Shown: positions 28,857 to 51,728, counted from the first letter of the stretch. The stretch: 64,000 nucleotides of DNA from an uncultured Actinomycetota bacterium (GCA_963790635.1 CAWBPJ010000003.1:410823-474822); one strand, 5' to 3'. Notes: generated by a model from the letters alone, not told the origin. A program made the numbers and translations.

Positions 28857-29339
28857 GTGATTCTGATCGCCTATGACGGCTCTGAAGACGCCAAGGCCGC
28901 GATTGAGCAGGCCGCCAAGCTGTTCCATGGCCAGTCGGCAACGGTCCTGAACGTGTGGCAGCGTTTCATCGACACGATGGCTCGTGTCGGTAGCGGGATG
29001 GGGATGGTCGTCGACTACGACGGGATCGACGAGGAGTCTCAGACGAGCGCCCGTGACCGCGCTGAAGAGGGCGCCAAGATCGCCTCGGAGGCCGGGCTCG
29101 AAGCGGTCGGGGCGATCGCCGTGGTGGATACCACGATCCCCGACGCGATCCTCAACGAGGCGGCGACGATCGGCGCGGACGCCGTGGTCTGCGGCAGCCG
29201 CGGTTACAGCGGGATCAAGTCACTGATGCTCGGCAGCGTCTCAACCCACATCCTCCAGCACGCTGACGTGCCGGTGGTTGTGGTGCCGTCGCCGGAGGTG
29301 GCCAAGGCGCGGGCGGAGCATCGCCAGAGCCTCAGGTAG
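28857..29339 (+). CDS. Universal stress protein
   Basis: Motifs ILIAYDGS, GSRGYSG, LGSVS and PVVVVP. Confidence 0.92.
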   Translation: MILIAYDGSEDAKAAIEQAAKLFHGQSATVLNVWQRFIDTMARVGSGMGMVVDYDGIDEESQTSARDRAEEGAKIASEAGLEAVGAIAVVDTTIPDAILNEAATIGADAVVCGSRGYSGIKSLMLGSVSTHILQHADVPVVVVPSPEVAKARAEHRQSLR

Positions 29340-30288
29340 GAGACGCGCGCCGTTGCCTGATCATCGCAGCGAGCCGCAGCCGGCCGTATTCGGCGGCTGT
29401 GATCCCCAGGCCGGCAACGATCGCGCCCGCCCGCCGGAGCCCGTCCCGGTCTCCACGGACTGCCTCGCTCAGGCCACGCAGAACGCCCAAGGGCAGGGTG
29501 CGCATGACGTACGTCCGTTCGGACGCGAGCCCATCCTGGATACCGACGAGCGTGGCCACCAGCGCCTTTCCGCCGGCCTCGAGTCTGCAGCGACTGACGA
29601 AGTAGGCCCACCGCGCCCGCTCGGGCGTGACCGTGTGCAGCACTGCCGCCTGCTCCGAGAAGACCCAGTAGCCGCCGTCGTATGCTCTCGCCGCTCGGAT
29701 CGCGAACTCGGTTTCGTCCGCCGTGCCGGCCGCACCGCTCCCACGTCCAAGGGCAGCAGCCCAGGATCCGACGCGATCGGCGACCTCGGCCCGAACCGAC
29801 ATGTTGGCTCCGATCGGATTTCGGATGCGATTCCCATCCATCGGCAGGCCCAGATACGAGCATCCCACGACCCATAGGAACTCCTCCGGGAACCAGGCCG
29901 GCCTCGGGGTCTGCCAGAGCGGCATGGTCGGACCGCCAACGCCCAGGACGTTCGGGTCCGCATATGCATTGTGGTGACCCTCGAGCCAACTGGGACTGGC
30001 CACAGCGTCGTCGTCCAGGAATGCCAGGTACCGCCCGCACGCAAGCTTCGAACCTGTCATGCGACCACCGGAGAGGCCTCTCACCTCGTCGTTCATGACC
30101 ACACGGACGCCGCTGAAGGTGGCCTCCGCGCGCGCCTTCAACTCGTCGTTGCCGTCGACCACGAGGATCACCTCGAGCGGCTGCCGCGTCTGGCCGGCGA
30201 CGGACTCTATGCACGCGATCAGCTCGTCCCAGCGATCGAAGGTGTACGCGCAGACAATGACTGAGAAGCCGTCCTCTCGGACTGCCAT
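29332..30288 (-). CDS. Glycosyltransferase family 2
   Basis: Motifs SVIVCAYT, VVDGN, GLSGGR, FLDDDA, GANM and DETEF. Confidence 0.9.
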   Translation of the reverse strand: MAVREDGFSVIVCAYTFDRWDELIACIESVAGQTRQPLEVILVVDGNDELKARAEATFSGVRVVMNDEVRGLSGGRMTGSKLACGRYLAFLDDDAVASPSWLEGHHNAYADPNVLGVGGPTMPLWQTPRPAWFPEEFLWVVGCSYLGLPMDGNRIRNPIGANMSVRAEVADRVGSWAAALGRGSGAAGTADETEFAIRAARAYDGGYWVFSEQAAVLHTVTPERARWAYFVSRCRLEAGGKALVATLVGIQDGLASERTYVMRTLPLGVLRGLSEAVRGDRDGLRRAGAIVAGLGITAAEYGRLRLAAMIRQRRASPT

Positions 30289-30344
30289 TTCCGACCCGCC
30301 GTTTTCAGAGCTCACGCAGCCAGCGTAGCGATGGTCGTGGCCGC

Positions 30345-31550
30345 CTAGGTGGGCGCGGCAGGCGACACGAGCGCATTGACACCCTCGAATGTCCGTGACC
30401 AGGTGAGCTGCTCCGCACGACGCCGTCCCAGCGTTCCCCACCGGGTTCGAACCTCCGGATCATGAAGCAGCGCTCTGAGCATGCCTGTCAGTCCCGACTG
30501 CTGCTCGAAGTACTGCACCGACCCCTCGCCAAGCTGAGGTATCCCCCCACGCCGCGCGGCCACAGTTGCCAATCCGGATGCCATGCCCTCGAGCAACACG
30601 AGCGGGCACGGATCCTCGAATTGGGATGGCACGACCAGGATGTCATGCTCGCGATACACGTTCGGCATCTCCGCGTTGGGCCGGAACGGAGCGAATGTCA
30701 CCTTGCCGGAGAACTCGGCCGTCCGCCCCCTGAGAGTCTGCTCGAACTTCGATGCACGGGCCACATCGGGGTTGGAGATACCCACGAACGTGGCCCGGAA
30801 GTCGACTCCTTCCGCATGCAGCTCGCAGAGTGCCGCCGCCAGCACCTGTGGTCCTTTGATTCTCATCATCCTGCCGACGAACAGGATCGACGGAACTCGT
30901 GATGCATCGGTATCCCGTGGTGTGAAGCGATCGGCATCCACGCCATTGAGCACCGTCACAAGCCGGCTGTCGACGCTCGGCGAACGCGCAGCTCGCCGTA
31001 CCGAATCTCGAATCCAATCGCTGACGCAGATCACCTTGTCCGCCAGCGAGATGAACCGGCGAACCTCACGCGGCGAGTACGCCGGGGAGAGCTTGTTGTG
31101 CATCCAGAGGAAGAGCCTCCGGTCGGGGCAGATGCGGTGCAGCGTCTCCAGGCCGGCCGCGCCGAGGTAACCGTCGTGCACGATGATCGGCCCCTCTGAA
31201 TCGAGCACCGCCTCACCAATCGAGCGATACATGCGCTCGACGTTGTTTCGGTTGAGACCGGCCCAGCCCCGGAAGGAGTCCGCGAACCGCTCACGCAACA
31301 GCAGGCCCTCGTGGTCGAGGTACCTGGAGAACTCCACGGGCAGGATCTCCGCCTGTGGGAAATGCACGTCGCGGTTATCTGACGACGCGACCGCCGATCT
31401 CACGCCGTTATCGGCGGCCACGCGGGTCACCTCGCGAATCACGTTGTTGACGGCGCTGCTGTCACCCGTCAGCGGCTGTGTGACGTGAACCCACAAAACG
31501 ATAGATCCGGATGGGGCGATCAGATCGGCCGGCGTTGGCCGGGTCGGCAC
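30345..31550 (-). CDS. Glycosyltransferase family 4
   Basis: Motifs ICVS, NGVD, FVGR...KG and PSQFEDPCPLVLLEGMASG. Start uncertain (ORF open to 31796). Confidence 0.9.
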   Translation of the reverse strand: MPTRPTPADLIAPSGSIVLWVHVTQPLTGDSSAVNNVIREVTRVAADNGVRSAVASSDNRDVHFPQAEILPVEFSRYLDHEGLLLRERFADSFRGWAGLNRNNVERMYRSIGEAVLDSEGPIIVHDGYLGAAGLETLHRICPDRRLFLWMHNKLSPAYSPREVRRFISLADKVICVSDWIRDSVRRAARSPSVDSRLVTVLNGVDADRFTPRDTDASRVPSILFVGRMMRIKGPQVLAAALCELHAEGVDFRATFVGISNPDVARASKFEQTLRGRTAEFSGKVTFAPFRPNAEMPNVYREHDILVVPSQFEDPCPLVLLEGMASGLATVAARRGGIPQLGEGSVQYFEQQSGLTGMLRALLHDPEVRTRWGTLGRRRAEQLTWSRTFEGVNALVSPAAPT

Positions 31551-31810
31551 CGGAGTCGAGTCACCATGATCAGGGTAGCCAGAGGCCAGGACGCGGAAAG
31601 CAGATCGGCCGGCGGATCGGCGATCCGAAACGGGAGCGTGATCCGGGTGCCGCAACAGCACGTGCATGGCAACCCGAAAGCTTTGCCACCTGTCTGCCGA
31701 CATACACCGTGGATGAGCTGTTGCGTTTCCCCCCTCGATGCCCGCCCGTTTATGATGGAAACTTATCTGTTCGTTATGCCTGGGACCTTTGGCCATACGA
31801 GGGGGGTGGG

Positions 31811-33748
31811 ATGATCGACCGGCTGGCGGGAGCCGACCGCTCGACGACGCCCCCTGGAGTCGATGTGGACGGTGAGGGTTGTGTCACCGGAAGCTCGTTC
31901 TGGCTTGATATCGAGCCGGAGCCGATCTACGGCGTGCTGCACGCTCCGCGCAGCAGCGCTCGGACACGGGTCGCGGCGCTGATCCTGCCGCCGTTCGGGG
32001 TCGACGACGAATACTCTTACCGCCCGCGCCGCGACTGGGCGACGAGTCTGGCTGAGGCCGGGGTCACGGCCGCGCGCATCGACTTTCCGGGCACCGAGGA
32101 CAGCGTCGGCTCACCGTTCGCGTCAAACCGCCTCGGGTCATGGGTGGATGCGACGGTGCAGGTTGCGCACTGGCTGCGCGAACGAACCGGGTGTGATCGT
32201 CTCGTCGTCGTTGGGATTTCCGTGGGAGGCCTGATCGGATATCAGGCGATCTCTGCGGGGGCTCCGTTCGATGACCTGATCCTCTGGGGCGTACGGGCCA
32301 GCGGCCGCGCACACCTGCGGGAACTGCGAGCGTTGGCAGCCATGATCGCCGGAGAGATCGTCGAGCCGATCGAGAACACGCGGACGGCCGCCGGCGACTT
32401 CTGGCTCGGTGGTCACATGATGAGCACGGAGACGGCTGAGGCCTTGAGCGGCCTCAATCTCCTGGAAGCGCCGTTGCCAGAAGCCGAACTGCGACGAGTG
32501 CTGCTGGTGGGCCGCGATGCGCACGGCGTGGACGAAAAACTGGCGCGCGGCATCACTGAGTCCGGAGCGGACCTGACCGTGATCGACGCCGACGACTATC
32601 GCCTCCTGATCTCACAACCCGACTGGGGATGGTCGCCGGCGGAGACCATCTCGGCGTCGATCGAGTGGCTGCAGGCGGCGCCCGACGCAGCGTACACACC
32701 GACCCACCGCGAGCCGACGCTAGAGACACCCAAGGTCCGCGACTCGGTGGTGTTCGACTTTGACGGCGTCCGCATCCGTGAGCGATTGTTTGAGGTGAAC
32801 ACGTCCGAAGGGCGCCTGACCGGCGTCATCAGCGAGCCCGTGGCCGGCGGGCCTGCCCCCTTATGCCTTGTTCTCCTGAGCGCCGGGGCGCTGCGGCGCA
32901 CGGGTCCGAGTCGTATCTATGTGGAGATGGCACGCCACGCCGCCGCAGGCGGGATACCCGCGGCCCGCTTTGACTTCCCGGGTGTTGGCGACTCTGACGG
33001 TGGCCGGGTCAAGGCTTATGAGCGCCGGCCGGCGGACGACCCGGGTCCCCTGACCGCACTCAGCGAGGTCTACGACCATCTCCATGCGCTCGGGTTCGCC
33101 GATCGCTTCGTCGGCGCCGGCCTCTGTCTCGGCGGCTACTTCGCGATTCGCACGATTCTCGAAGACGAACGCGTGATCGGAGGGATCAGCATCAATTCGC
33201 CGGCGCTGCTGTGGACGAACGCACACGCGAAGCGTGGCGTCAGGTGGTTTGCGTCCGTCAGCGGCACTCAGGAGCTGGACGTGGCTGAGCGGTCTGCAGA
33301 TCCGGACCGCTCGGGCCTGCTGCGGGGGATCGCGCGCCACGCCGGGCACGTGCGCCGAGCAATCGAATTCCGCTTGGGGAACAAGGCGATGCATCTCGAG
33401 CTGCTCTGGCGCTTTGAACATCGCGCCAACATCTCCGGGGCGTCGAAGACGCTCGACCAGCTCGACCGCAATGGCGCAAAGGTGCTTTTCCTGTTCTCCG
33501 GGAACGAAACGGTGCCACGCATCCTTGGGCTTTCGAGACTCGCCGCGAGGATAGACCGAAGCCCGAACGTCGCGCTCGAGCATCTGCAGACCGGCGACCA
33601 CAATCTGCGGCCGCTGCGAATTCAGGAGCTCGTCCTGGACCGCGTGTCCTCAGTGCTTCGTGACGTCAGCTCCAGCTTCAACAGCACAACGCCTGAGTCG
33701 GCCGCCGTCGTTGAACCGGTCGTTCATGCAACCGACCGGTTGTCGTAA
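31811..33748 (+). CDS. Tandem (two-domain) alpha/beta-hydrolase
   Basis: Domain 1 has LPPFG, IDFPGTEDS and GISVGG. Domain 2 has RTGPSR, RFDFPGVGDS, GLCLGG and GDH. Confidence 0.8.
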   Translation: MIDRLAGADRSTTPPGVDVDGEGCVTGSSFWLDIEPEPIYGVLHAPRSSARTRVAALILPPFGVDDEYSYRPRRDWATSLAEAGVTAARIDFPGTEDSVGSPFASNRLGSWVDATVQVAHWLRERTGCDRLVVVGISVGGLIGYQAISAGAPFDDLILWGVRASGRAHLRELRALAAMIAGEIVEPIENTRTAAGDFWLGGHMMSTETAEALSGLNLLEAPLPEAELRRVLLVGRDAHGVDEKLARGITESGADLTVIDADDYRLLISQPDWGWSPAETISASIEWLQAAPDAAYTPTHREPTLETPKVRDSVVFDFDGVRIRERLFEVNTSEGRLTGVISEPVAGGPAPLCLVLLSAGALRRTGPSRIYVEMARHAAAGGIPAARFDFPGVGDSDGGRVKAYERRPADDPGPLTALSEVYDHLHALGFADRFVGAGLCLGGYFAIRTILEDERVIGGISINSPALLWTNAHAKRGVRWFASVSGTQELDVAERSADPDRSGLLRGIARHAGHVRRAIEFRLGNKAMHLELLWRFEHRANISGASKTLDQLDRNGAKVLFLFSGNETVPRILGLSRLAARIDRSPNVALEHLQTGDHNLRPLRIQELVLDRVSSVLRDVSSSFNSTTPESAAVVEPVVHATDRLS

Positions 33749-33763
33749 ACACCTCCGTTTGCC

Positions 33764-35038
33764 ATGGCCGACGCGATCCGCGCAGACCTGACGGCTGCTC
33801 CGCCGGAGTTCACCCCGATTTGGAGCGGTGAGCTGGAGCTCGCGGTTCCAGCTCTGCCGGAACGCCTTGAAAATGCCGACGGTCAGACCTTCGACCGCGC
33901 TCGCCTGCTCGTCCGTGCGAGCGGCACACCGCTGGGCTCTCTGGAGGTGGACGCGGTTGACGGCAGGATCGATCTCGAACACGCGGTCGCCCTCGCTCGG
34001 TCAAGCTTCGCCGATCAGGCGGCAGAGGCTGACGCCGATCAGGCCTGGCGATCCGCTCCCGGCCCCAAGGTGTCACTCGTGCTCTGCACGTACAACCGTG
34101 CGGTTGGTGCGCAGCGGACGCTCGAGTCTTTCAAGGGCCTGCACTATCAGGACCTTGAGATCATCGTCGTCGACAACGCCCCGAGCGATGACTCGACGCT
34201 TGCCGTGGTGAACGCGGTTGCGGCGACCGACCCGCGCGTGCGTTACGTCAGAGAACCACGTAAGGGCTTATCTCGAGCTCGCAACCGTGGCCTCCAGGAG
34301 GCGACCGGCGAACTCGTGGCGTTCACGGATGATGACGTCCGGGTCGACCCACTCTGGATACATGGCCTGCTGCGCGGCTTCAACCGCCGGGCCGACGTGG
34401 CCTGCGTCACCGGATTGGTGGCGAGCGCCTCGCTTGCCCGTCCCGCTGAGCAGTTCTTCGATCGTCGCGCCGGCTGGGCCTCGTCCTGCCAACAGCGCCT
34501 GTACACGCTCGGCCGGGGTCCGCTCGACTCGCCGCTGCACCCGTACACGGCAGGCACGTTCGGCGCAGGCGCAAACTTCGCGGCGAAGCTCTCAGTGCTC
34601 AAATCGCTCGGCGGTTTCGATGAGTCTCTGGGCGCCGGATCGCCCACACGCGGAGGCGAAGACCTCGACATGTTCGTCCGGATCCTGCTGCACGGGTACG
34701 CGCTCAGCTACGAGCCGTCAGCGCTCGCCTGGCATGAGCATCGCGTCGATGAGGGCTCGCTCAGCGCTCAGATGTACGCGTATGGGCTCGGTCTGACCGC
34801 ATACCTGACGAAGCACATGCTTTCGCGCAGGTCGCGTCGAGCGATGCTCAGCCGCGCTGTGGGCGGGTCTCGGTACGCCTTCGGGCTGATCCGCGGATCG
34901 CGCACCGCCAGCGCAGACGCGTCAATAAGGAGTGACGTGGCCCGTGTAGAGGTACGAGGGATGCTCGCCGGCCCCGTTGTATATCTGCGCGAGCGCAGGC
35001 GGCAGGACAAGCAGCATCTGCGGGCGGTTCGCCCCTGA
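33764..35038 (+). CDS. Glycosyltransferase family 2
   Basis: Motifs SLVLCTYNR, VVDNAP, GLSRARN, FTDDD, GAGAN and GGEDLD. Confidence 0.92.
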   Translation: MADAIRADLTAAPPEFTPIWSGELELAVPALPERLENADGQTFDRARLLVRASGTPLGSLEVDAVDGRIDLEHAVALARSSFADQAAEADADQAWRSAPGPKVSLVLCTYNRAVGAQRTLESFKGLHYQDLEIIVVDNAPSDDSTLAVVNAVAATDPRVRYVREPRKGLSRARNRGLQEATGELVAFTDDDVRVDPLWIHGLLRGFNRRADVACVTGLVASASLARPAEQFFDRRAGWASSCQQRLYTLGRGPLDSPLHPYTAGTFGAGANFAAKLSVLKSLGGFDESLGAGSPTRGGEDLDMFVRILLHGYALSYEPSALAWHEHRVDEGSLSAQMYAYGLGLTAYLTKHMLSRRSRRAMLSRAVGGSRYAFGLIRGSRTASADASIRSDVARVEVRGMLAGPVVYLRERRRQDKQHLRAVRP

Positions 35039-35134: not shown

Positions 35135-36331
35135 ATGTCCAAAACCCTCCCCCGCCGGATCTCATTCCTCATCGGTCTGGCCACTGCGCTGGTACTCGCC
35201 CTCGGAGCCAGCGTCGCACTCGCAGCTGGATCAGCCCGCGCCCACTCGATCAAGAAGACGCACGAACACCACCTGAAAGCGCATGAGCGCCGCACCAAGG
35301 CGCAGGAGCGCCACCACCAGAGCGTCGCCCACAAACGCCACCACAAGAGCGCCACGCACAAGCGGCACCACAAGAGCGTCGCGCACAAGCGCCACCACAA
35401 GAACAGGACCAAGAGCCACAGGAAGCATTCCGGGACGAAGGTCGCCGCCAACCACGCCGTGCTGACGACATCGAACACGAATGCCGCCGCGGCCACGCAG
35501 AACAAGAGGCAGCGGCCGACCACACCGAATCCCGGCCGGACAACGACGACCCCAGCCAAGACGACCACCACCCCGTCCAGCACCACGACGCCTACGACCA
35601 CAACCACCCCGACGACCTCCCCCTCCACGGCGGCCACCCAGCCGGTCGGAATCGCAGGCAATTGGAACATGGTGATGGACTCGGAGTTCGACAGCTCGTC
35701 CCTGAACACGAACATCTGGACGCCGGGGTGGTTCGGGACCGGCGTGACCGATCCCGTCAACGGCGGCGAGGATGACTGTTACAGCTCGAACAACGTCGTG
35801 CCGACCACCTCGGCGCTCGATCTCCTCGTGACCAACCAGTCCTCGACCTGCAACGGGAAGACCTTCCCGTACACCGGCTCGCTGATCTCAAGTAACCCGA
35901 ACGGCAAGAACACAGGTTTCCTCTACACCTATGGGGTTCTCGAAGCCCGCGTGTACGTTCCGGCTGCAGCCAACGGGAAGATCGCAAACTGGCCGGCGGT
36001 ATGGGCTGTTACAACGCCATCGGAAACCTACGGTGAGGACGATCTCCTCGAGGGGCTCGCGGGCCAGGCCTGCTACCACTTCCACAACACCGCCGAAGCT
36101 CCCGGTGCCTGCGATACGACCCTGACCCCTGGCTGGCACACCTTCGCCTCGGATTGGAAGCCCGGGTCGATCACCTACTACTACGACGGCAAGGACGTCG
36201 GATCGATCACGTCGGGAATCGGCAGCAGCCCGATGTACATCATCCTCAACAACACCGTCAGCACCACCAACCTGGGCATCGAAGCTGCGACCACTATGCA
36301 GGTCCAGTACGTCCGTGTGTGGCAGGACTGA
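35135..36331 (+). CDS. Secreted GH16-family glycoside hydrolase with His/Lys-rich and Thr-rich N-terminal regions
   Basis: Signal peptide. YTGSLISS, YTYGVLEAR, WPAVW, GEDDLLEG, WHTF..DW, YYYDG and QYVRVWQ. Confidence 0.85.
   Translation: MSKTLPRRISFLIGLATALVLALGASVALAAGSARAHSIKKTHEHHLKAHERRTKAQERHHQSVAHKRHHKSATHKRHHKSVAHKRHHKNRTKSHRKHSGTKVAANHAVLTTSNTNAAAATQNKRQRPTTPNPGRTTTTPAKTTTTPSSTTTPTTTTTPTTSPSTAATQPVGIAGNWNMVMDSEFDSSSLNTNIWTPGWFGTGVTDPVNGGEDDCYSSNNVVPTTSALDLLVTNQSSTCNGKTFPYTGSLISSNPNGKNTGFLYTYGVLEARVYVPAAANGKIANWPAVWAVTTPSETYGEDDLLEGLAGQACYHFHNTAEAPGACDTTLTPGWHTFASDWKPGSITYYYDGKDVGSITSGIGSSPMYIILNNTVSTTNLGIEAATTMQVQYVRVWQD
35300..35420 (+). repeat. 27-bp coding repeat encoding HKRHHKS(V/A)(A/T)
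   Basis: About 4 imperfect copies of CACAAGCGCCACCACAAGAGC... Confidence 0.8.
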
Positions 36332-38057: not shown

Positions 38058-38075
38058 GGGCACCCCGGCAGGAAA

Positions 38076-38945
38076 CTAGGCGTTGGTCTGAGGATCCAGA
38101 TCCGGCGGGTCGATGCGGACGTCGAGTTGCGTCCACATCTCGATGCTGGCAAGCGTCGGTGCCGGGCGTGCCAAACCAAGGACCGTCTCAGACTGCACCG
38201 GCGGATTGACACCCAGCCGCTCGGCGGCTCGCAGCGGGAGGTAGACGGCCAGCCACGGGACCGGCAGGATCACCGAGGATCTGCCGTTGGCAGAGGAGAT
38301 CGCCCGCATCAGGTCTCCAAACCGGATGGTCGACGGACTGGCGAGGCCCAGAAGCTGCCCGTTCACCGATTCAGCCTCAGCGAGTGCCACCACGGCGGTG
38401 GTCGCATTGTCGAGGTGGATGAGTGCCTGGCGGCTACCGGCCGCGAACACAGGAATCACCGGCAGCTTGGCAAACCGCAGGAGCAGTCCGAAGACGCCAC
38501 CGTTGGTCCCACCATAGACCGTCCCCAGCCTGACGACGTTGCCACCGGCCTCGAGCGTCAGCCGCTCCGATGCAAGCTTGGCGTTCCCGTACATCTGACG
38601 CGTCCCCTCGAACGCAGAGACAGAGGAGATCAGGATGAAGCGGGCCCGCTCTGCGACTGCAGCGTCGAGCAGGCGGCGGGTGCCCTCGATGTTCACGCGC
38701 ACGACGTCGTCCCAGGTCCGCGGCGTCCAGTCGTAGGCACAGTGGATCACGACGTCGATGCCGCCAAGGAGGCCCGCCGGCACAGGCGACGTCAGTTCAT
38801 ATGGCCGAGGTTCGTGGACGCCGTCAGGTTTCCGGGTCAAGGCAACGACGTGGTGGCCGGCGTCGGCAAGCGCTTGCGCGACGGCACTGCCGACGTAGCC
38901 CTGAGCCCCTGTCACGCCGACTCGAAGCGGATTCATCTCAGACAT
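38076..38945 (-). CDS. NAD-dependent epimerase/dehydratase (extended SDR)
   Basis: Motifs VTGAQGYVG, VIHCA, ISS, YGNAK and RLGTVYG. Confidence 0.9.
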   Translation of the reverse strand: MSEMNPLRVGVTGAQGYVGSAVAQALADAGHHVVALTRKPDGVHEPRPYELTSPVPAGLLGGIDVVIHCAYDWTPRTWDDVVRVNIEGTRRLLDAAVAERARFILISSVSAFEGTRQMYGNAKLASERLTLEAGGNVVRLGTVYGGTNGGVFGLLLRFAKLPVIPVFAAGSRQALIHLDNATTAVVALAEAESVNGQLLGLASPSTIRFGDLMRAISSANGRSSVILPVPWLAVYLPLRAAERLGVNPPVQSETVLGLARPAPTLASIEMWTQLDVRIDPPDLDPQTNA

Positions 38946-43564: not shown

Positions 43565-44479
43565 ATGGGAGAGATGTTGCTTCAGCTACGCGCTTTGGGC
43601 TCTTGGCGCGCACCGCGTTTTGGCGTCCTGCTGACCGGACTGCTCGTCCTGCTCGCGGGCTGCGGCACGGCGCCCGCGCGCACTCACGCGCTGACGTCAA
43701 AGACCAAACAGCCCGTCACGGCAGGGCCGATGGGTGTCCCGGGTCACTGGCAGCTCGTGCTCAATACGACCTTCAACGGCACCTCGCTCGATACCAAGAT
43801 CTGGCGCCCCAACTGGTTCGGCACCGGCCGTCAGATCACGGGTCCGATAAATGGGCATGAGCTGGCCTGTTACAGCCGGAGCAACGTCACCCTCCCAGGC
43901 AACGGGGCCCTGAACCTCAATGTCACCCATGTGCCCTCGGCCTGCGCAGGCACCACCCGCCCATATACGGGCGGCATAATCTCGACCAATCCTGGGGACG
44001 GCCGCAAGAGCGGCGGCTTCCAATACACCTACGGCGTTCTCCAGGCTGAGATCTATGTTCCTGGCTACCGTGGCCTGATCTCGAACTGGCCGGCGTTCAC
44101 GACCTTCGGGCAACACTGGCCTGTCACCGGTGAGGATGACGTGGTCGAAGGCATCGCCGGCACGCAGTGCTCGCGATTTCATAGTGCGGTGACCTCGGCA
44201 GCTGGAGTGGGCGGTTGCGATCCCGGATTCACCCCCGGCTGGCATGTGGTTACGGCCAATTGGGCTCCAAACTCGATCACCTGGTACTACGACGGTGTCA
44301 AGATCCTGCATGAGACCAAGGGCGTGACCTCGGCGCCGATGTACATCGTTCTGGTCAACACGGTGTCTGGGAAATGGCCGCAGACGGCGAGGCCTGCAAC
44401 CATGAAGGTCGCATACGTGCGAGTCTGGCAGCCGGCCGGGCCACGGTCATCCCACGCCGAATACAAATACTCGTTTTGA
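43565..44479 (+). CDS. GH16-family glycoside hydrolase lipoprotein
   Basis: Lipobox LAGC. YTGGIIST, FQYTYG, WPAF, GEDDVVEG, WYYDG and AYVRVWQ. Confidence 0.85.
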   Translation: MGEMLLQLRALGSWRAPRFGVLLTGLLVLLAGCGTAPARTHALTSKTKQPVTAGPMGVPGHWQLVLNTTFNGTSLDTKIWRPNWFGTGRQITGPINGHELACYSRSNVTLPGNGALNLNVTHVPSACAGTTRPYTGGIISTNPGDGRKSGGFQYTYGVLQAEIYVPGYRGLISNWPAFTTFGQHWPVTGEDDVVEGIAGTQCSRFHSAVTSAAGVGGCDPGFTPGWHVVTANWAPNSITWYYDGVKILHETKGVTSAPMYIVLVNTVSGKWPQTARPATMKVAYVRVWQPAGPRSSHAEYKYSF

Positions 44480-44631: not shown

Positions 44632-45816
44632 ATGACCTTGACAACTGACTCATCTGATCCGAGCCTGGAGCCCGTCGGCGATCGAATGATCCAAATCGCT
44701 GAGGAGCTCGGCGAGACCGTTATCGGCCCTGCCGCGTGGGACGTCGACGCGCAGGCAAGGTTCCCATCTGAGTCGCTGGCGGCGATAAAGGACGCGAAGC
44801 TGCTGTCCGCGCTCGTTCCCGTCGAGCAGGGCGGCATGGGAGCGAGGATGACGGATGTCAGCAACACGATCCGAGTGGTCGCCCGCTATTGCGGCGCGAC
44901 CGGGTCGGTCTTCGCGATGCATATGGAGCAGATGTTTCTCCTGCTCAGGCACGGCAACACGCCCGCCCTGCGCCGGCTCGTGGATGAGATCGTCGAGCGC
45001 CAACTCCTGATTGCCAACGCCAACAGCGAGGTTGGACTAGGTGGAGACGTGATGCGAAGCCTGGCCCCATTGGAGCCGGAGGGGGATGGCTGGCGGTTCG
45101 ACAAGCAGGCGCTCGCGGCCTCGTATGGCAGCCATGCGGATCTGATCCTCTCAACCGCGCGGCGCTCCGCTGACGCGGCTGAGACAGATCAGGCGGTCGC
45201 AATGCTTCGAGCCTCCGAGATGATGCTGGAGGAGACCACGGGCTGGGACACCCTCGGGCTGCGCGGGACGCGCAGCTCCGGGCTGCACATCAGCGGCCAC
45301 GTGACGTCTGACGACCTCTTCCCCGTCCCCTTTGCAGAGATGGCCAGCCAGGGCGGCGGCCAGATGCGGCACATCCTGTTGACAGCTGTCTGGACGGGCC
45401 TGGCCGAAGGAGCAATGCGCGAGGCACATAAGACCGTGCGGGCCGCGGCGCGACGCAACATCGGGACCACCAGCCAGTCAGCGATGCGTCTGGCAGAGAT
45501 CATGGCCGATGTCCAGGTCGCCCGTGCCACGCTCGCAGACGCCCAGCGTCGCATCGAGGTCGCGCTCGAAACGGACACGCTTGAGGACATCGACCTGATC
45601 ACCAACCTGCGCAATGTCAAGATCGTGACCACAACGACCGCGGTGCGTGTCGCCGGGATGGCGCTTCAGATCTGCAGCATCAACGGCTACAGGCGGGGCC
45701 CTGATCATCCACTTGAACGCATCCTCCGTGACGCATACGGAGGCCTGATCATGGTCGGCAATGACCGATATCTCGCTGAGAACGCACAGATCCTGCCGGT
45801 CCGCAGCACGATCTGA
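44632..45816 (+). CDS. Acyl-CoA dehydrogenase family protein (carrier-protein-associated type)
   Basis: Motifs DAQARFP, GGMG, FAMH, WDTLGLRGTRS, ALQIC..GY and LERILRDA. Confidence 0.88.
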   Translation: MTLTTDSSDPSLEPVGDRMIQIAEELGETVIGPAAWDVDAQARFPSESLAAIKDAKLLSALVPVEQGGMGARMTDVSNTIRVVARYCGATGSVFAMHMEQMFLLLRHGNTPALRRLVDEIVERQLLIANANSEVGLGGDVMRSLAPLEPEGDGWRFDKQALAASYGSHADLILSTARRSADAAETDQAVAMLRASEMMLEETTGWDTLGLRGTRSSGLHISGHVTSDDLFPVPFAEMASQGGGQMRHILLTAVWTGLAEGAMREAHKTVRAAARRNIGTTSQSAMRLAEIMADVQVARATLADAQRRIEVALETDTLEDIDLITNLRNVKIVTTTTAVRVAGMALQICSINGYRRGPDHPLERILRDAYGGLIMVGNDRYLAENAQILPVRSTI

Positions 45817-45850: not shown

Positions 45851-47122
45851 ATGCCGAGGCTCGCATACGTTTACGACCCGCTGTCCTTTGCTCCGCTATC
45901 GGTCACGGAGGCCGCCGACGGCATCTGTGATCTCATCTGGGTGATCGACAGCACAAAGCCTGACGCTCGGACGATCGCGAAGTTGCTCCGCAGGTTCGGC
46001 CCTGTGATCGACTCCGCGGACCTCACGCTCGAACAGGTCGCAGTCCGGGTGCGCGAACACGAGCCTGACGGCATCCTGTCGATGCATGACGCTGATCTGG
46101 TCTGGACGGCTGAGCTCGCGGAACTGCTCGGGTTGCCGTTTCACAGTCACGCGACCGCGGTTACGCTCACCGACAAGAACGCACAGCGCACTGCGCTTGC
46201 ACGCGCAGGGCTGCCGGTCCCCCCGTTCTCCATCATCCCGGCCGCAGCGGATCCAGCGGCCATCAGCCAGATCGGCTCGACGTTCAGATATCCGGCCGTC
46301 TTGAAGCCGCGCAACGGCCAGTCAAGTCGCGATACGCTGCCGATCGCATCCTATGAGGAGCTGGAGGCAACGCTGCTCGACCTGCGCCGGCGTCCGGGCG
46401 CGCCGGTGGAGGACTTCGTCCTCGAGGGATACATCCCCGACGCCACGAGTGAACTGGGTGGACATGGCTTCGCCAGCTTCGTGTCAGTGGAGAGCGTCGT
46501 CGAGCACGGCCAGGTCGCGCATGCCTCGATCAGTGCTCGGACGCCCTTCCGGTGGCCGTTCCTCGAGACGGGATACTGCACGCCGACTGCGCTGGCTCCC
46601 GCCCTCCAGGCAGAGGTGTTGAAGGTCGCCGGCGACGCTGCCCGAGCGTTGCAGGTCGAGACCTCGTGCCTGCACACCGAGATCAAGCTGACCGATGACG
46701 GCCCGGTGATCATCGAGGTCAATGGCCGACCCGGGGGTGGGATGTCAGAGATGCTCGAGCGCGCATCCGACGGCAGCTTCAGCATCGTCAAGAGCGCCCT
46801 GCGACTCGCTGTCGGTGAACACGTGGGGCTCACGGGCCCGATCGAGTGCTCACGCGTCGGCTACCTGCTCTACGCATTTCCGCAGACCGACCTCGAGTGG
46901 ATCGACGGCGTGGAGGGCCTCGGTCACCTGGGTGAACGCGACGGGGTGGATGAGGTTGTGCTCGTCAGAGGACCCGGACAGCGGGTCGACTGGCGCGAAG
47001 GCTCAGAGGCGCACGTCTTCCACCTGACCGGAACCACGGCTAATCACGATGAACTGTTGCAGTTGATTGCGGCGATTCCGACCCTGGTCCGGATCGAGGG
47101 CCACAACGACCAGCCGGTCTAA
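45851..47122 (+). CDS. ATP-grasp domain protein (L-amino acid ligase-like)
   Basis: Motifs TDKNAQR, YPAVLKP..GQSS, LEGYI, SVES, HTEIKL and IEVNGRPGG. Confidence 0.9.
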   Translation: MPRLAYVYDPLSFAPLSVTEAADGICDLIWVIDSTKPDARTIAKLLRRFGPVIDSADLTLEQVAVRVREHEPDGILSMHDADLVWTAELAELLGLPFHSHATAVTLTDKNAQRTALARAGLPVPPFSIIPAAADPAAISQIGSTFRYPAVLKPRNGQSSRDTLPIASYEELEATLLDLRRRPGAPVEDFVLEGYIPDATSELGGHGFASFVSVESVVEHGQVAHASISARTPFRWPFLETGYCTPTALAPALQAEVLKVAGDAARALQVETSCLHTEIKLTDDGPVIIEVNGRPGGGMSEMLERASDGSFSIVKSALRLAVGEHVGLTGPIECSRVGYLLYAFPQTDLEWIDGVEGLGHLGERDGVDEVVLVRGPGQRVDWREGSEAHVFHLTGTTANHDELLQLIAAIPTLVRIEGHNDQPV

Positions 47123-47168: not shown

Positions 47169-48434
47169 TCAGCAGATGGCGCCGACCTGAGCTTCCACAG
47201 CCGCCTCGACGACATCAATGCCGGCCAGCAGCGTTTCGTCATCGGTGGTCAGCGGCGGCAGGAACTTGACAACCTCGGAGTGAGAGCCGGCGGTCTCGAT
47301 CAGCACGCCGTTCGCAAACGCCTCACGTGAGACCCTCGCGGCAAAGTCGAGATCGCTGAGTGAGGCGATTCCCTGGAACATGCCCCGTCCACGCGCTTCG
47401 AGGAATCCGGGATGTCGAGCGGCGATCGCGTCCAGTCGGCCACGCAGCAGGGCGGCTTTGCGCTTGGTGTCCGCGCTGAAGGCGTTGTCAGACCAATAGG
47501 TCCGTAGCGCCGCGGTCGCCCCCACAAACGCGAGATTGTTTCCTCGGAACGTTCCCGTATGTCCGCCGGGCTCCCACACGTCCAACTCAGGACGGATCAG
47601 GACCAACGACATCGGGAGCCCGTACCCGGACAGCGACTTGGACAGCACGACGATATCCGGGCGTATCCCCGACTCCTCGAAGCTGAAGAAGTCCCCCGAC
47701 CGGCCGCAGCCGGCCTGGATGTCATCCACGATCACGACGATGCCGTGTTGCGCCGCGAGTGCCGTGATGCTTCGCAGCCATTCGGCACTGGCCGCGTGGA
47801 CGCCACCTTCACCCTGGATGCACTCGACGATGATCGCAGCAGGCTTGTCCACCCCGCTCGACGGGTCGTCCAGTTGCTTGGCCAACAGAGCGATCGTGTC
47901 GACGTCCGGGCCGTGGTAACCCTCGTAGGGCGCAAACGTCACACTGCCCAACGGCACGCCGCTTGCCTCGCGATACTGCCGCGCGGCAGTGGTGGCCAGA
48001 GCGCCCAGGCTGAGCCCGTGATATCCCCGCGTGAAGGCGATCACGTTGGTCCGTCCGGTTGCCAGCCGTGCAACCTTGATCGCGGCCTCGGTCGCATTCG
48101 CCCCGGTGGGACCCGTGAACTGGAGCTTGTAGCGGAGCCCGCGCCGCGTCAGGATCAGGTCGCGGAACGTCTCGATGAACTCGAGCTTGGCGGTGGTGGC
48201 CATGTCGAGGCCGTGCACGATGCCATCACGCTCGAGATACTCGATCAACGCCGGCTTGAAGAGCGGGTTGTTGTGTCCGTAGTTGAGTGTTCCCGCGCCT
48301 GCGAAGAAATCGATGTACCGCCTGCCGCCCTCGTCGATGAGCACCGACCCGCTCGCGGTGTCAAACATCGTCGGGAATGACCGTATGTATCCCCGAACCT
48401 CTGACTCCCACTCTTCAAAAACCTCAAGACTCAT
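47169..48434 (-). CDS. ectB: Diaminobutyrate--2-oxoglutarate transaminase (EctB-type)
   Basis: Motifs ESEVRGYIRSFP, DFFAGAGTLNYGHN, QFTGPTG, DDIQAGCGR, LSKSLSGYG and GTFRGNN. Confidence 0.92.
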   Translation of the reverse strand: MSLEVFEEWESEVRGYIRSFPTMFDTASGSVLIDEGGRRYIDFFAGAGTLNYGHNNPLFKPALIEYLERDGIVHGLDMATTAKLEFIETFRDLILTRRGLRYKLQFTGPTGANATEAAIKVARLATGRTNVIAFTRGYHGLSLGALATTAARQYREASGVPLGSVTFAPYEGYHGPDVDTIALLAKQLDDPSSGVDKPAAIIVECIQGEGGVHAASAEWLRSITALAAQHGIVVIVDDIQAGCGRSGDFFSFEESGIRPDIVVLSKSLSGYGLPMSLVLIRPELDVWEPGGHTGTFRGNNLAFVGATAALRTYWSDNAFSADTKRKAALLRGRLDAIAARHPGFLEARGRGMFQGIASLSDLDFAARVSREAFANGVLIETAGSHSEVVKFLPPLTTDDETLLAGIDVVEAAVEAQVGAIC

Positions 48435-49390
48435 GGCTTCACCGCCTTTGGCGTTCGCGACGATGACGTGACAAGCCTCGACATCAGCATCGCGAAACCT
48501 GGCGGCCAATCATGTGAACCGCCCTGGATAGATTGCAGCGTCACCGTGACGCCGGACTTACAGTGTGTGTACGTGGTGAAAATATTGGTCGTCGACCTCC
48601 TGGTCGACGGACGTGCCTTGCACTTGTCGACCTGCGCCCACCGCGCAGCCGACGCATGTGCGGACAGAACCGTCACGGGACCTCCGTACCCCCCAAAGGT
48701 GCCGCCGTCGTATGGGATTGTCGGATCAGACGTCGCGTGTATCTCGTAGACGAAGATGGGCTTACTCGGGCGGCAGCTGGAAGAGATGGCCGGCGACATC
48801 TGCCCTTCCACCGGGACCGTCAAGGTCAGGTAGGCCGCGGCCCTGCAGCCAAGCAGCTCGGCCAGGATCGCGCCGTTGGAAATCCCAGTCGCGGCCACAC
48901 GATGCATGTCGACGTAATGACTGGACTCCACACGATTCAAGACAGCCTCTGTGAATGCGACGTCGTTGACGTGATCAGCCTCCGCGGGCGGGTTTCCGGC
49001 GTCGTCGTTCCAGCTGTCCTCATAGCCCTGAAGAAACGCGACGATCATGTTGTGGTGCTGCTCGGCGTAACTCAGCAGCCCGGTCTCGCCGGCGATATTC
49101 TCCGCCGTGTCGTATGCCCCGTGGTACACGAGTACGAGTGGCAGCCGATGTTTGGACGTGTCACCAGGCGGAACGTAGAGCAGATAGGTCCTGAGGCGCC
49201 CGGCGGCCGTCACTGTGTATGTCTGCATTCCACCCGTGCCGGCGGTGGAGGAGTGCGGGATCCGATCGGCTCCTCGCGCAGGTGACCCGCTGGCCGCCGA
49301 CGCGATGCCCAGAGCCAGCCCCAGGGCCGCGCCGCCCGCGACGAGCACGCCGGTGATGACCGCGAGGACAGAGGCACGCGGACTGCGCAT
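48431..49390 (-). CDS. Secreted PHB-depolymerase/LpqC-like esterase
   Basis: Signal peptide. RTYLLYVP, PLVLVYHG, DVAF, TGISNG, HATSDP and HDWP. Overlaps the ectB start. Confidence 0.85.
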   Translation of the reverse strand: MRSPRASVLAVITGVLVAGGAALGLALGIASAASGSPARGADRIPHSSTAGTGGMQTYTVTAAGRLRTYLLYVPPGDTSKHRLPLVLVYHGAYDTAENIAGETGLLSYAEQHHNMIVAFLQGYEDSWNDDAGNPPAEADHVNDVAFTEAVLNRVESSHYVDMHRVAATGISNGAILAELLGCRAAAYLTLTVPVEGQMSPAISSSCRPSKPIFVYEIHATSDPTIPYDGGTFGGYGGPVTVLSAHASAARWAQVDKCKARPSTRRSTTNIFTTYTHCKSGVTVTLQSIQGGSHDWPPGFAMLMSRLVTSSSRTPKAVKP

Positions 49391-49395
49391 GCCGT

Positions 49396-50328
49396 TCAGT
49401 CCCCGAGCCTACGGCGCACGGCGCTCGGCCAGCTTTCGAGATCTACACCGTGTGTCCGGAACAACGCGAGCACGATCCTGTCCTGCCCAAAGGCTGCACA
49501 TGCCGTGTGTGCGAGCGACCCGTCGGCGAGCTTGAGGTCCCAGACATCCCCGAAATGATCCATGTGGTAATTGAAGGACGCGCAGGCGGTCCGAGTCGGG
49601 CCCGCAATCTGCACCTCCAACTCCCACTTCAGCTCCTCCGCGCTCTGGTTGGCCGCCAGCAAGCGGCCGACGCGCCCAAAGAAGGGGTCGTTTGCATTCT
49701 CGAGCTTGCCGTCCAGTCCGAGTTCGGAGAAGAGCTGCACGCCACGTTCGGACCAGTCCACGCGCCACTGCGCGACGTCGTCGGCCTGGCCGATGCGCAC
49801 GATCTCATGCATGCGGAAGGTCTGACGCCGTGCCGGGTCCTCCGATGGCTCGTGACGGAACACCCAGGCGCCGCCAAGATCAAAGGTAACCCCCTCAAGG
49901 GCGACGGGCCCCCGCGCCGCCAGCGCCGGGTAGACCGGGTAGCACGCGGCCGGCAACATCATCAGGTCGGTTTGGTTCTGGAATTCGCTCCAGTCCTCGT
50001 GCGCCGCCGCGCGCTCGCCCTGTGAACGAGCCTCAGACTCCGACCCTTCAAAGCCGAAGATGCTGCCGGCGAGATGGGGGAAATTGCCGACGTACCCGTT
50101 GGTCTCCAGGTCTCTCCGCGGCACCACAGGCGGGAAGCTGAGCTTCGAGGCACCGCCTGCAAGCGCGAGTCCGCTGACCGCTGCGGTCAACTGATCGCGT
50201 ACCCGCTCGTATGCCTGACCGTGGCCGTAGACGCCGGGAACGCCAGATTCGATCAGCAACCCCGCGGCGCATAGCTCACGCTGGAACTCCGCCTGATCGT
50301 TGCTTGCCGTTTGCACGTTAATCGACAC
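49396..50328 (-). CDS. Amino acid:[carrier protein] ligase (atypical SerRS catalytic-domain homologue)
   Basis: 310 aa with no tRNA-binding arm. PAACYPVY, motif 2 FRHEPS...R.Q.FRMHE, ANDPFFGR, SFNYH.DHFG and motif 3 HTACAAFG.DR. Confidence 0.92.
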   Translation of the reverse strand: MSINVQTASNDQAEFQRELCAAGLLIESGVPGVYGHGQAYERVRDQLTAAVSGLALAGGASKLSFPPVVPRRDLETNGYVGNFPHLAGSIFGFEGSESEARSQGERAAAHEDWSEFQNQTDLMMLPAACYPVYPALAARGPVALEGVTFDLGGAWVFRHEPSEDPARRQTFRMHEIVRIGQADDVAQWRVDWSERGVQLFSELGLDGKLENANDPFFGRVGRLLAANQSAEELKWELEVQIAGPTRTACASFNYHMDHFGDVWDLKLADGSLAHTACAAFGQDRIVLALFRTHGVDLESWPSAVRRRLGD

Positions 50329-50471
50329 GGGCGAATCTCCTGTCAGTCAGGTTGCCAAGCGAAACGTTCAAGTTCGTGACATCGAAGGGCGATCTTTGGT
50401 TCGGCACAATCGTTGATATCGGCGCCAGCCCGTAATGTCTTGACAAGAATCGACCGATAACACAGGTGACC

Positions 50472-50717
50472 ATGGACGACAAGATCCGAGAAATCCTCAA
50501 CGCGCACGGCGCATTGTGTGTAGCCGCCGCGCGCTTGACCGACGACTCCGACCTATACGAGGCCGGCATGACCTCCATCGCGAGCGTCAACGTGATGCTC
50601 GGGCTGGAAGATGAGTTCGATGTCGAATTCCCTGACAGCATGCTCAAACGCAGTGTTTTCGAAAGTATCGCCGCGATCCGCGCGGCCCTCACTGAACTAC
50701 AGGCTACGCCGTCCTGA
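50472..50717 (+). CDS. Acyl/aminoacyl carrier protein
   Basis: DLYEAGMTSIASVNVMLGLEDEFDVEFPD, with the predicted phosphopantetheine Ser in GMTS. Divergent from the ligase. Confidence 0.9.
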   Translation: MDDKIREILNAHGALCVAAARLTDDSDLYEAGMTSIASVNVMLGLEDEFDVEFPDSMLKRSVFESIAAIRAALTELQATPS

Positions 50718-50765
50718 CGTCAGCGCCCCCGACCGGCGCTGACGACAGAACGGTGGACAACGGTG

Positions 50766-51728
50766 TTACGCAAGCGCCTGGATGACCTGCGGGATGGGTG
50801 TGATCGACTCCGCCTCTCGAGGGGTGAACGAGCGGGTTGGCATCCGCAGCCACTCGGCCTCGAGTGTCGGCTCGATCTCAGCGTAGTCGGGCATCCATGC
50901 GTCGCTGGCTTCGGGTAGGCGGGTGAAGCGTTCACGGAAGATCGTTCTGAGTACGCGTTTGCCGTCTCGCCAGGCGTTGAGGTTGCTGAGTCCGTGGATC
51001 CGTAGCTGTTCGAAGCTTGGGACCTCAACGATGTTGAACCCGGCCTTGGCGGCACGCACGTTCAACACGGTCTCGACCTCGAACCCGTCGCAGGTGATGT
51101 GCAGTTGCGGCAGGCAACGCCGCCAGAACGCGCTGTACCCGTAACAGAGATCGGTGTAGCTGGTCCCGAACATCAGATTCACGCCGGCGCCGAGCGCACG
51201 GTTGCCGAGACTCCGCACACCCGTGATATCGGCGCTGCCGCCACCATCCATGTAACGCGACCCCTTCACGAAATCAGCGCCATGGATCAACGGGCGGATG
51301 AACGTCGGGATCTCCTTCGGATCAGTCGAACCATCCGCGTCGATCATCACGAGGATGTCGCCACGCGCAGCCGCGAAACCGCACGCCAGCGCGTTGCCCT
51401 TGCCCCTGCGATCCTGCAACACGACCCGCACATCGGGACGCAACTCACGCGCGACCGCGATCGTGTGATCGGTCGAATGCCCATCAACGACGATCAACTC
51501 ATTGATCCCGTTCGGCAGATGCTCAAAAACATGCGGCAGGTTCGCCGCCTCATTCAACGTCGGAATGATCGCGCTGACCGTCGGCCTGTTACTCAGGTCA
51601 CGCCGCTCCCGCTCCCGCTCACGCGCAATCGACCTACGATCGCGAACCAAATGATGGTGATGGCTTCGATCCCGAGCCAGATGACCCGTGGTCTTCCCCT
51701 GACCGCGCTCATCGATAGTGATACTCAT
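50766..51728 (-). CDS. Glycosyltransferase family 2 (DPM1-like polyprenol-phosphate glycosyltransferase)
   Basis: Motifs IIPTLNEA, VDGHSTD, GKGNAL, IDADGS, KGSRY, TDLCYGY and GFEVE. Confidence 0.9.
   Translation of the reverse strand: MSITIDERGQGKTTGHLARDRSHHHHLVRDRRSIARERERERRDLSNRPTVSAIIPTLNEAANLPHVFEHLPNGINELIVVDGHSTDHTIAVARELRPDVRVVLQDRRGKGNALACGFAAARGDILVMIDADGSTDPKEIPTFIRPLIHGADFVKGSRYMDGGGSADITGVRSLGNRALGAGVNLMFGTSYTDLCYGYSAFWRRCLPQLHITCDGFEVETVLNVRAAKAGFNIVEVPSFEQLRIHGLSNLNAWRDGKRVLRTIFRERFTRLPEASDAWMPDYAEIEPTLEAEWLRMPTRSFTPREAESITPIPQVIQALA

Follow-up and report, generated by a model that had tools for sequence, protein, structure and literature searches.

A block of genes at positions 29332-51728 of a 64,000-nucleotide window from an uncultured Actinomycetota bacterium (GCA_963790635.1, CAWBPJ010000003.1:410823-474822; positions are counted from the first letter of this stretch) combines an aa:CP (amino acid:carrier protein) ligase and its carrier protein (CP) with a set of glycan genes. 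The explanation that fits the data best, which we hold with moderate confidence, is that the block forms a single accessory island in a Solirubrobacterales bacterium from soil and that it builds a surface glycoconjugate and decorates it with a small group derived from an amino acid and assembled on CP. When the open reading frames (ORFs) of the window were scanned against Pfam and NCBIfam, all genes named by a preliminary description of the block were found, and its statement that nonribosomal peptide synthetase and polyketide synthase (NRPS/PKS) genes are absent was borne out, condensation, ketosynthase and AMP-binding domains not being found in the block. Its term "candidate new system" has to be withdrawn: the same reading of the ligase family was published in 2010 (PMC2922099), and the cassette in its classic form occurs commonly across phyla. 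New here are the variant architecture and the comparative handles that it offers, not the general concept.

The boundaries of the island are real. Third-position GC of 29332-51728 is below that of the flanks (window GC ~66%); cytochrome bd and Usp genes form the left border, and the right border is a BetaElim-DUF6421-GT4/flippase operon that occurs independently of the ligase. The nearest relatives of the ligase belong to Conexibacteraceae and to Solirubrobacterales metagenome-assembled genomes, and the locus is present only in soil-metagenome DNA runs, no RNA runs containing it being listed.

The Ligase, Its Carrier Protein and the Classic Cassette

The ligase (49396-50328, minus strand; 310 aa) scores 379 bits against NF005479, exceeding the curated equivalog cutoff of 357 bits, and is ~50% identical to the solved Bll0957, with residues 24-309 aligning to residues 47-331 of that protein (E 8e-76; structures 3MEY/4H2W). 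It consists of the SerRS-like class II catalytic core only and has no tRNA-binding arm. Thirteen relatives show no variation at C129, E175 and C277, which align with the same residues in Bll0957; we take these positions to be the zinc site. SerRS-like aa:CP ligases, discovered in 2010, charge a dedicated carrier with small amino acids (Gly, Ala or Ser). The source genome (G000; 3.8 Mb, 74% complete) holds a single copy of the ligase. The carrier gene (50466-50717, plus strand; PF00550, E 8.5e-9) is divergent from the ligase gene, 138 bp apart, and its phosphopantetheine serine, Ser37 in the motif A-G-M-T-Ser37, is invariant in 30 homologues of a family that averages 62% identity. By these sequence comparisons, the protein is a genuine member of the aa:CP ligases, and a carrier of its own goes with it.

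An Sfp-type phosphopantetheinyl transferase (PPTase) is encoded outside the island (58995-59726, plus strand; PF01648 at 59319-59594, 52 bits), ~8.6 kb from the carrier gene and past the independent DUF6421 operon; it is the sole PF01648 match in the 74%-complete G000. A PPTase lies in the equivalent flank of locus L092 and within the cassettes of L109, L111 and L113, and we regard the protein at 58995-59726 as the candidate activator of the island carrier protein.

To place the module, we compared 80 loci (L-numbers), with 10-kb flanks around ligase homologues 45-75% identical, from Actinomycetota, Chloroflexota, Acidobacteriota, Pseudomonadota and other phyla, along with 24 genomes of the same genus (G-numbers; L094, L096 and L104 are the loci of G003, G004 and G010). 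Locus genes were called by codon usage and then grouped by de novo star clustering, and cassette counts are given over 82 loci. The recurrent partners of ligase and CP are an enzyme of the acyl-CoA dehydrogenase (ACAD) fold (72 loci), an ~850-aa GH2-like protein (63), a two-domain alpha/beta-hydrolase, hereafter the twin hydrolase (~56), and a DUF1839 protein (43); a methyltransferase and a PPTase are often in these classic loci too. The ACAD-fold enzyme, the twin hydrolase and the carrier are parts of a cassette conserved with the ligase across phyla. Six Rhizobiaceae classic cassettes (L076, L077, L079, L081, L089 and L091) also hold a second, truncated class II aminoacyl-tRNA synthetase (aaRS) paralogue (tRNA-synt_2, ~360 aa; for example, L091:6269-7354), and some of them lie near a class III aminotransferase.

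In a note added in proof, Iyer and Aravind (Biol Direct 2010; PMC2922099) described ligase neighborhoods with an acyl carrier protein, a redox enzyme, the unknown Atu2574, a glycosidase and lipopolysaccharide genes, and predicted from them that an amino acid is ligated to a cell-surface sugar derivative, the redox enzyme altering the aminoacyl group. Because they thus predicted surface-sugar aminoacylation, the general idea is not new. In a 2023 survey, DUF1839 falls among papain-like proteins with a C(T/S)H triad and is tied to glycan processing through genomic context (PMC10318531). Searchable literature yielded no resolved product for the ligase family.

Probable Coupling to Glycan Genes

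Of 53 full-length classic loci, 38 (72%; mean 1.58) have within 10 kb one or more genes of the GT2, GT4, Bac_transf, Wzx, Wzy or Wzz kinds, compared with 12.9% of random 21-kb windows of G000 (mean 0.24), a comparison that weighs less than its numbers suggest in that the surveyed loci, themselves related, had served to train the glycan hidden Markov models (HMMs) and a single genome provided the background. Eight of nine contexts of the type found in the window ("window-type") likewise sit amid glycan genes, so that relatives do not carry the module mostly without them.

The same-genus genomes tell how the genes travel. The ligase is present in 7 of the 24, and the neighboring BetaElim/DUF6421 operon in 16, irrespective of the ligase. 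Where the ligase is missing, as in G015, G007 and G018, the 19 kb next to this operon is without any island gene, glycan genes included, while in G003, G004 and G010, the aminoacyl and glycan sets are both present and are interleaved in differing orders. The island comes and goes as a whole, its glycan and aminoacyl genes being co-inherited. The tie between the aminoacyl module and glycan genes, as first described for the window, is upheld by the enrichment, the phyletic profile, this gain and loss as a unit, the occurrence of the module in other classes, and a cassette exchange in L110 (the last two below), and we consider it likely that the module is coupled to a glycan pathway.

Two further contexts extend the range of the module. 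In Lysinimonas soli (L112:10001-20570), five ATP-grasp paralogues, one of them 65% identical to the ATP-grasp of the window, occur with an EctB, an aa:CP-type carrier, an ACAD and a luciferase-like monooxygenase. These genes are bordered by Wzy/GT genes on one side and Wzx on the other, and an aaRS-like ligase is absent; the locus is possibly an ATP-grasp-loaded version of the same chemistry. An Acidimicrobiales contig holds ACAD, ATP-grasp, EctB, PPTase, CP and ligase together.

The operon on the right border (52115-57588, minus strand) is itself conserved and consists of BetaElim (GntG/threonine-aldolase-like), a DUF4350-DUF6421 fusion and a GT4 fused to an MprF-type flippase domain. We rejected it as part of the system, as it occurs in 16 of 24 genus genomes, 10 of them ligase-less, and far from classic-type ligases. 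In L097 (2733-9566), the GT4-flippase, DUF6421, BetaElim and GT2 genes upstream of CP are fragmented relative to the otherwise near-identical L096, which could be decay or sequencing error.

A Variant Architecture

The cassette of the window departs from the classic one. The window has no match to the family HMMs of DUF1839, of the GH2-like protein or of the cassette PPTase, and the methyltransferase of the classic cassette is also missing from the variant; a PF08893 search of the 74%-complete G000 gave no match, as did the control genomes. Instead, the variant carries a secreted feruloyl-esterase-like enzyme (48431-49390, minus strand; PHB-depolymerase/feruloyl-esterase family, PF10503, with a Sec signal and a GISNG elbow), an ATP-grasp ligase of the L-amino-acid-ligase type (45851-47122, plus strand; PF13535), and an EctB-type L-2,4-diaminobutyrate:2-oxoglutarate aminotransferase (47169-48434, minus strand; TIGR02407, 592 bits against a cutoff of 552). 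Homologues of these three accompany only the closest ligases. In a quick IQ-TREE run, window-type ligases form a single clade (10 rows, SH-aLRT 99) nested among Solirubrobacterales lineages that have classic cassettes. Five loci of this clade (L009, L012, L092, L094 and L096) share the gene order GT2 (AglJ/DPM1-like), CP, ligase, esterase, EctB, ATP-grasp and ACAD, with GT2, GH16, membrane-protein and GMC genes coming after the ACAD. In L110, a cassette of the classic type (CP, twin hydrolase, ACAD, ligase, DUF1839, GH2-like and methyltransferase) occupies the slot of the island and is flanked by the same island glycan genes (GT2c, GT2b, GH16 and GT4), an arrangement from which we infer that the window type arose through in situ replacement of the tailoring and transfer genes.

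The Twin Hydrolase

The twin hydrolase (31811-33748, plus strand; weak, sub-cutoff matches to TIGR03101 and TIGR03100) accompanies the ligase in all 7 genus genomes that have it, always on one contig with it at a distance of 0-18 kb, and occurs in 1 of the other 17. Its C-terminal half has a conserved G-x-Cys439-x-G elbow, and D596-H597 are also conserved. The Cys is kept in 56 of 57 relatives, and Ser stands in its place in the G010/L109 lineage, a replacement that points to Cys439 as the nucleophile. At the corresponding position of the N-terminal domain, 53 of 57 relatives have Gly or Arg, and Ser is confined to the window and to G004, the relative closest to it. The enzyme is not a Ser and Cys pair; only the C-domain Cys is conserved. 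In G004 (C3:67677-69572), the twin hydrolase gene has one in-frame TAG, which could mark a pseudogene or an assembly error.

A structural model of the twin hydrolase (pLDDT 82, pTM 0.85) and of its complex with CP gave an ipSAE of 0.74, against 0.00 for the best control; 58 of 80 solved complexes attain this mark, as do 2 of 110 mismatched pairs. The complex runs share at least 66% of contacts (partner pLDDT 87) and bring Ser37 and helix II of CP onto residues 171-182 (a conserved RELRA helix) and 236-238 of the N-domain. The N-terminal half is predicted to be a pseudo-hydrolase-like domain that docks the carrier; the model supports CP binding but does not show it. Together with the co-occurrence in 7 of 7 ligase-bearing genomes, the docking sustains the earlier view of the twin hydrolase as a genuine partner in the module. 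A Foldseek search against the Protein Data Bank (PDB) returned generic alpha/beta-hydrolases only (feruloyl esterases and lipases) and no specific transacylase. That the twin hydrolase performs the acyl-transfer step is a proposal to which we give slightly less than an even chance.

Alternatively, the glycoconjugate could be decorated with the twin hydrolase serving only as a proofreading (type II) thioesterase; transfer would then fall to the ATP-grasp, which would join an amino acid or dipeptide, once released, through an amide bond to an amino sugar or uronic acid, or to the secreted esterase-family enzyme, acting as a transacylase outside the membrane. We think this unlikely, although several observations fit it: ATP-grasp enzymes commonly amidate carboxylates, the ATP-grasp has one weak match to PF14397 ("sugar-transfer associated ATP-grasp"), the esterase always follows the ligase in window-type loci, and classic cassettes keep the hydrolase even though their predicted transferase is DUF1839. 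Yet the window type has lost DUF1839 and kept the hydrolase, a secreted esterase is beyond the reach of a cytoplasmic CP, and a conserved Cys nucleophile combined with a conserved, noncatalytic domain predicted to dock CP would be unusual for a simple editing thioesterase.

Putative Tailoring Enzymes

The ACAD-fold flavoenzyme (44632-45816, plus strand; PF00441/PF02771) lacks the canonical catalytic Glu, and the position that holds this residue in short- and medium-chain acyl-CoA dehydrogenases (SCAD/MCAD) is Val or Ile in 61 of 61 aligned cassette ACADs. Its profile and PDB neighbors are divided between dehydrogenases and ACAD-fold oxygenases (DszC, SfnB and nitrososynthases), which are equally distant, and within the cassette family, it is a divergent branch, at ~200 bits to the classic members. 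Two sister islands (L104:13247-17387, in G010, and L109:15681-19677) have a further acyl module, in which a three-domain ACAD of the canonical kind is joined by an AMP-binding ligase, another carrier protein and an acyltransferase of the Lip_A_acyltrans (PatA/LpxL) type; this is the lineage with the Ser nucleophile in the twin hydrolase.

The solved structures nearest to the ATP-grasp are the L-amino-acid ligases 3VOT, 4WD3 and BacD. Its gene is present in exactly 4 of the 24 genus genomes, those with window-type or near-window-type ligases, and homologues 65-70% identical adjoin the same CP family in Microbacteriaceae and Acidimicrobiales, so that the ATP-grasp co-occurs with this CP family even without the ligase. 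The suggestion that it acts on a CP-bound residue is a tentative one. EctA and EctC are missing among the window ORFs scanned, and an EctC (PF06339) search of the 74%-complete G000 gave no match, as did the control genomes. The esterase is nearest to the feruloyl esterase 9J07 (E 6e-18), and its gene directly follows the ligase gene.

These enzymes also invite a different explanation, in which the product of the ligase, CP, ACAD, ATP-grasp and EctB is a small molecule that stays free (for instance, an oxidized amino acid or a dipeptide with diaminobutyrate), the twin hydrolase is its releasing thioesterase and the glycan genes are mere neighbors in a variable region. The ATP-grasp is closest to ligases that make free dipeptides, EctB is typical of small-molecule pathways, no enzyme of proven sugar specificity for acyl transfer is present, and in the window-type locus L010, the ligase, esterase, EctB, ATP-grasp and ACAD genes lie amid housekeeping genes and a BTAD regulator, with no glycan genes. 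The last locus is without CP and twin hydrolase and may for that reason be a remnant; a 64-aa ORF considered there as a carrier protein was rejected. A free product is hard to reconcile with an island that is lost or gained whole, its gene sets interleaved in shuffled orders, with the enrichment of glycan genes around the ligase across phyla, with glycan genes that bear either a classic or a window-type module, or with the placement of the Lysinimonas module between Wzy/GT genes and Wzx. We consider a free small molecule distinctly unlikely.

Glycan-Side Proteins

Several of the glycan genes recur in sister islands. The left-end GT2 (29332-30441, minus strand; PF00535, E 5e-22) has homologues in G010 and L109, the GT4 (30345-31796, minus strand; PF13692/PF00534) is present in the G004 and L110 islands, and a second GT2 (33764-35038, plus strand; PF00535, E 1e-28) is conserved in G003, G004, G010, L109 and L110. 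The Wzx-type flippase (36498-38057, plus strand; PF13440/PF01943) is conserved in L009, G003, G004 and L109, and the GMC-family FAD oxidoreductase (38938-40557, minus strand; PF05199, E 1e-23) is also in L096/G004. The GT2 at the right end (50766-51728, minus strand; PF00535) is of the polyprenyl-phosphate hexose synthase type (AglJ/DPM1-like), its best NCBIfam matches being AglJ and dolichyl-phosphate hexose transferase, both sub-cutoff. It adjoins CP in seven of nine window-type contexts and is missing beside BetaElim in ligase-less genomes, and is thus an island member.

The polytopic membrane protein noted earlier (40671-43322, minus strand) has no Pfam match and belongs to a small unannotated family of 69 proteins. 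A model of its C-terminal 484 residues (400-883; pLDDT 82) has GT-C proteins as all of its top 15 structural matches (Z 16.1-8.8, up to 417 residues aligned), among them AglB (Z 16.1, 403 residues), STT3 (15.0), Pmt (14.7), ArnT (14.2), AftA (14.1) and PglB (13.0), and a structure-atlas search agrees on this assignment; as modeled, the protein has a GT-C fold and is a predicted membrane glycosyltransferase. An ~180-aa low-complexity insert, with acidic EEGAA/EEESS repeats and then basic RKRARA repeats, separates its N-terminal transmembrane block from the GT-C body, and one member of the family (P0174) is fused to a GT2 domain.

The AglJ/DPM1-like GT2 and the GT-C protein raise the possibility that the acceptor is a membrane glycolipid or lipoglycan, or the glycan of a glycoprotein, and not a polysaccharide; the likeness would be to phosphatidylinositol mannoside/lipomannan (PIM/LM)-type or archaeal Agl-type pathways, and the aminoacyl group would shift surface charge. 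The best matches of the GT-C enzyme are AglB, STT3 and PglB, C-terminal domain included, and the Pfam scan of the window recognized neither a priming phosphoglycosyl transferase nor a Wzy. Sister islands add the AMP-ligase, second CP and PatA/LpxL-type acyltransferase described above, and the GT4 fused to an MprF-type flippase domain adjoins the island. That GT4-flippase operon, however, is independent of the ligase, the conserved columns of the GT-C family contain no WWDYG-type oligosaccharyltransferase motif, and a Wzx with several GT2 and GH16 genes suits a secreted or wall polysaccharide equally. We judge a glycolipid or glycoprotein acceptor to be rather unlikely.

The remaining proteins of the glycan set are two GH16-like proteins and an epimerase. 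The former, one secreted (35135-36331, plus strand; PF00722, 23 bits against a cutoff of 22; signal peptide, EDDLLE motif) and one a lipoprotein (~43565-44479, plus strand; PF00722, 22.3 bits; lipobox LLAGC, EDDVVE motif), share an E-D-D-x-x-E motif and score only at the Pfam threshold, and the secreted one has a His/Lys-rich repeat after its signal peptide. In the NAD-dependent sugar epimerase/dehydratase (38076-39170, minus strand; PF01370, E 2e-16), the PF01370 domain begins at residue 86 of the called ORF, and the true start is probably near 38940.

Proposed Mechanism

We propose that the PPTase would convert the carrier to holo-CP and that the ligase would load Gly, Ala or Ser on it as a thioester. 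The Glu-less flavoenzyme would then oxidize the CP-bound residue. By analogy with butirosin and closthioamide, which are precedents for ATP-grasp enzymes acting on carrier-bound amino acids (PMC7183216), the ATP-grasp might append a second residue, with EctB supplying diaminobutyrate where present. The loaded carrier would dock on the inactive N-half of the twin hydrolase, and Cys439 of the C-half would accept the acyl group and hand it to a sugar hydroxyl or amine. The acceptor sugar would be carried on a polyprenyl-phosphate-linked intermediate begun by the AglJ/DPM1-like GT2; Wzx would flip this intermediate, the GT-C enzyme would transfer it outside, and the secreted esterase and GH16 proteins would trim the product there. 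The genes of the window would stand in for three members of the classic cassette, namely the DUF1839 transacylase, the methyltransferase and the GH2-like protein.

The preliminary description had placed the transfer on a Wzx-exported glycan repeat. Its Wzx is present, but the likelier acceptor chemistry, a polyprenyl-phosphate sugar made by the AglJ/DPM1-like GT2 and then used by the GT-C enzyme, is unlike a simple Wzx repeat; that the acceptor is a lipid-linked sugar is nonetheless doubtful in our estimate. The most specific form of the proposal is a hybrid, NRPS-independent thiotemplated route, in which an aaRS-like ligase and a free-standing ATP-grasp would build an oxidized aminoacyl or diaminobutyrate-containing dipeptidyl group on CP. 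A Cys-type hydrolase, with a dead twin domain as carrier dock, would replace the papain-like DUF1839 and transfer this group to a polyprenyl-phosphate-linked sugar that the GT-C enzyme installs at the surface, and a single glycan scaffold could take either the classic or the window module, like exchangeable cartridges. Taken whole, this route has a low probability in our view.

Several points, besides the limits of the enrichment comparison, weigh against a system that decorates a surface glycoconjugate in the way outlined here. Searchable literature yielded no experiment on any product of the ligase family, and since the Solirubrobacterales loci are related, their shared synteny overstates independence. 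In the window-type locus L010, glycan genes, CP and twin hydrolase are all missing within 10 kb, and no priming phosphoglycosyl transferase was recognized in the island. The nearest solved relatives of the ATP-grasp use free, not carrier-bound, amino acids; EctB varies across sister islands and is missing near L009, L012 and G010; and the esterase is extracytoplasmic, whereas CP is in the cytoplasm. An editing thioesterase is another possible role for the twin hydrolase, and its docking model may partly reflect a general thioesterase-carrier likeness.

If decoration of a surface glycoconjugate is correct, aa:CP ligases would underlie a widespread placing of amino-acid-derived groups on bacterial surface glycans, independent of both tRNA and NRPS, that extends over Actinomycetota, Chloroflexota, Acidobacteriota and, with rhizobia among them, many Alphaproteobacteria. 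Like D-alanylation, it would be expected to affect surface charge, biofilm, and interactions with plants or phages to a comparable degree. The comparison provides three handles on such a system: the natural swap by which the same glycan genes bear either a classic module or an ATP-grasp/esterase/EctB cassette; the twin hydrolase, with a conserved Cys site next to an inactive half that is predicted to dock the carrier; and the pair of GT-C enzyme and AglJ-like GT2, which suggests a route from a cytoplasmic modification to the surface. Lysinimonas soli, with its submodule in a Wzy/Wzx locus, could be an experimental entry point.

Comparison with Known Systems

The closest known relatives of the module are Bradyrhizobium Bll0957 with its carrier (3MEY/4H2W) and Agrobacterium Atu2573, which share the SerRS-like class II core without a tRNA arm and the dedicated carrier. 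The classic aa:CP cassette also shares the Glu-less ACAD-fold enzyme, the two-domain hydrolase, the vicinity of glycan genes and the predicted surface-sugar role; the window differs from it in having no DUF1839 (Atu2574-type) predicted transacylase, no ~850-aa GH2-like protein and no methyltransferase.

The hydrolases of the exosortase A (PEP-CTERM) system offer a parallel to the twin hydrolase, whose N-half resembles hydrolase 2 and whose C-half resembles hydrolase 1, and both systems lie in polysaccharide loci. The scores are far below cutoff (TIGR03100/TIGR03101; 50 vs. 168 and 57 vs. 203 bits), the halves are fused in the window, and there is no exosortase or PEP-CTERM context. On the glycan side, a DPM1/AglJ-like GT2, a flippase and a GT-C transferase in one locus recall the ArnC-ArnT, PpgS-Rv3779 and AglJ-AglB pairs, from which the window differs in that its GT-C family is unannotated. 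We know of no carrier-protein aminoacyl module in such polyprenyl-phosphate sugar/GT-C systems.

The biosynthesis of butirosin (BtrI/J/K/O/H/G) and closthioamide (CtaD/E/F/G), like the window, involves a stand-alone carrier, a clustered ATP-grasp and an oxidizing tailoring enzyme (PMC7183216), and in butirosin, the finished aminoacyl unit is moved to a sugar, as is proposed here. In contrast to these pathways, loading in the window would be by an aaRS-like ligase rather than by an ATP-grasp, there is no pyridoxal phosphate (PLP)-dependent decarboxylase, the ATP-grasp resembles free-amino-acid ligases, and no island ORF has a Pfam match to a papain-like BtrH/CtaG transacylase; the proposed acceptor is a cell-surface glycan, not an antibiotic.

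A comparable case is the D-alanylation of teichoic acids by the Dlt system (DltA/B/C/D): an amino acid is thioesterified to a small carrier and ends on a surface polymer, with a secreted esterase-fold protein involved. The island has no Pfam match to an AMP-forming DltA (PF00501) or an MBOAT DltB, and the polymer genes differ; the membrane crossing would proceed, in the system of the window, by way of a lipid-linked sugar.

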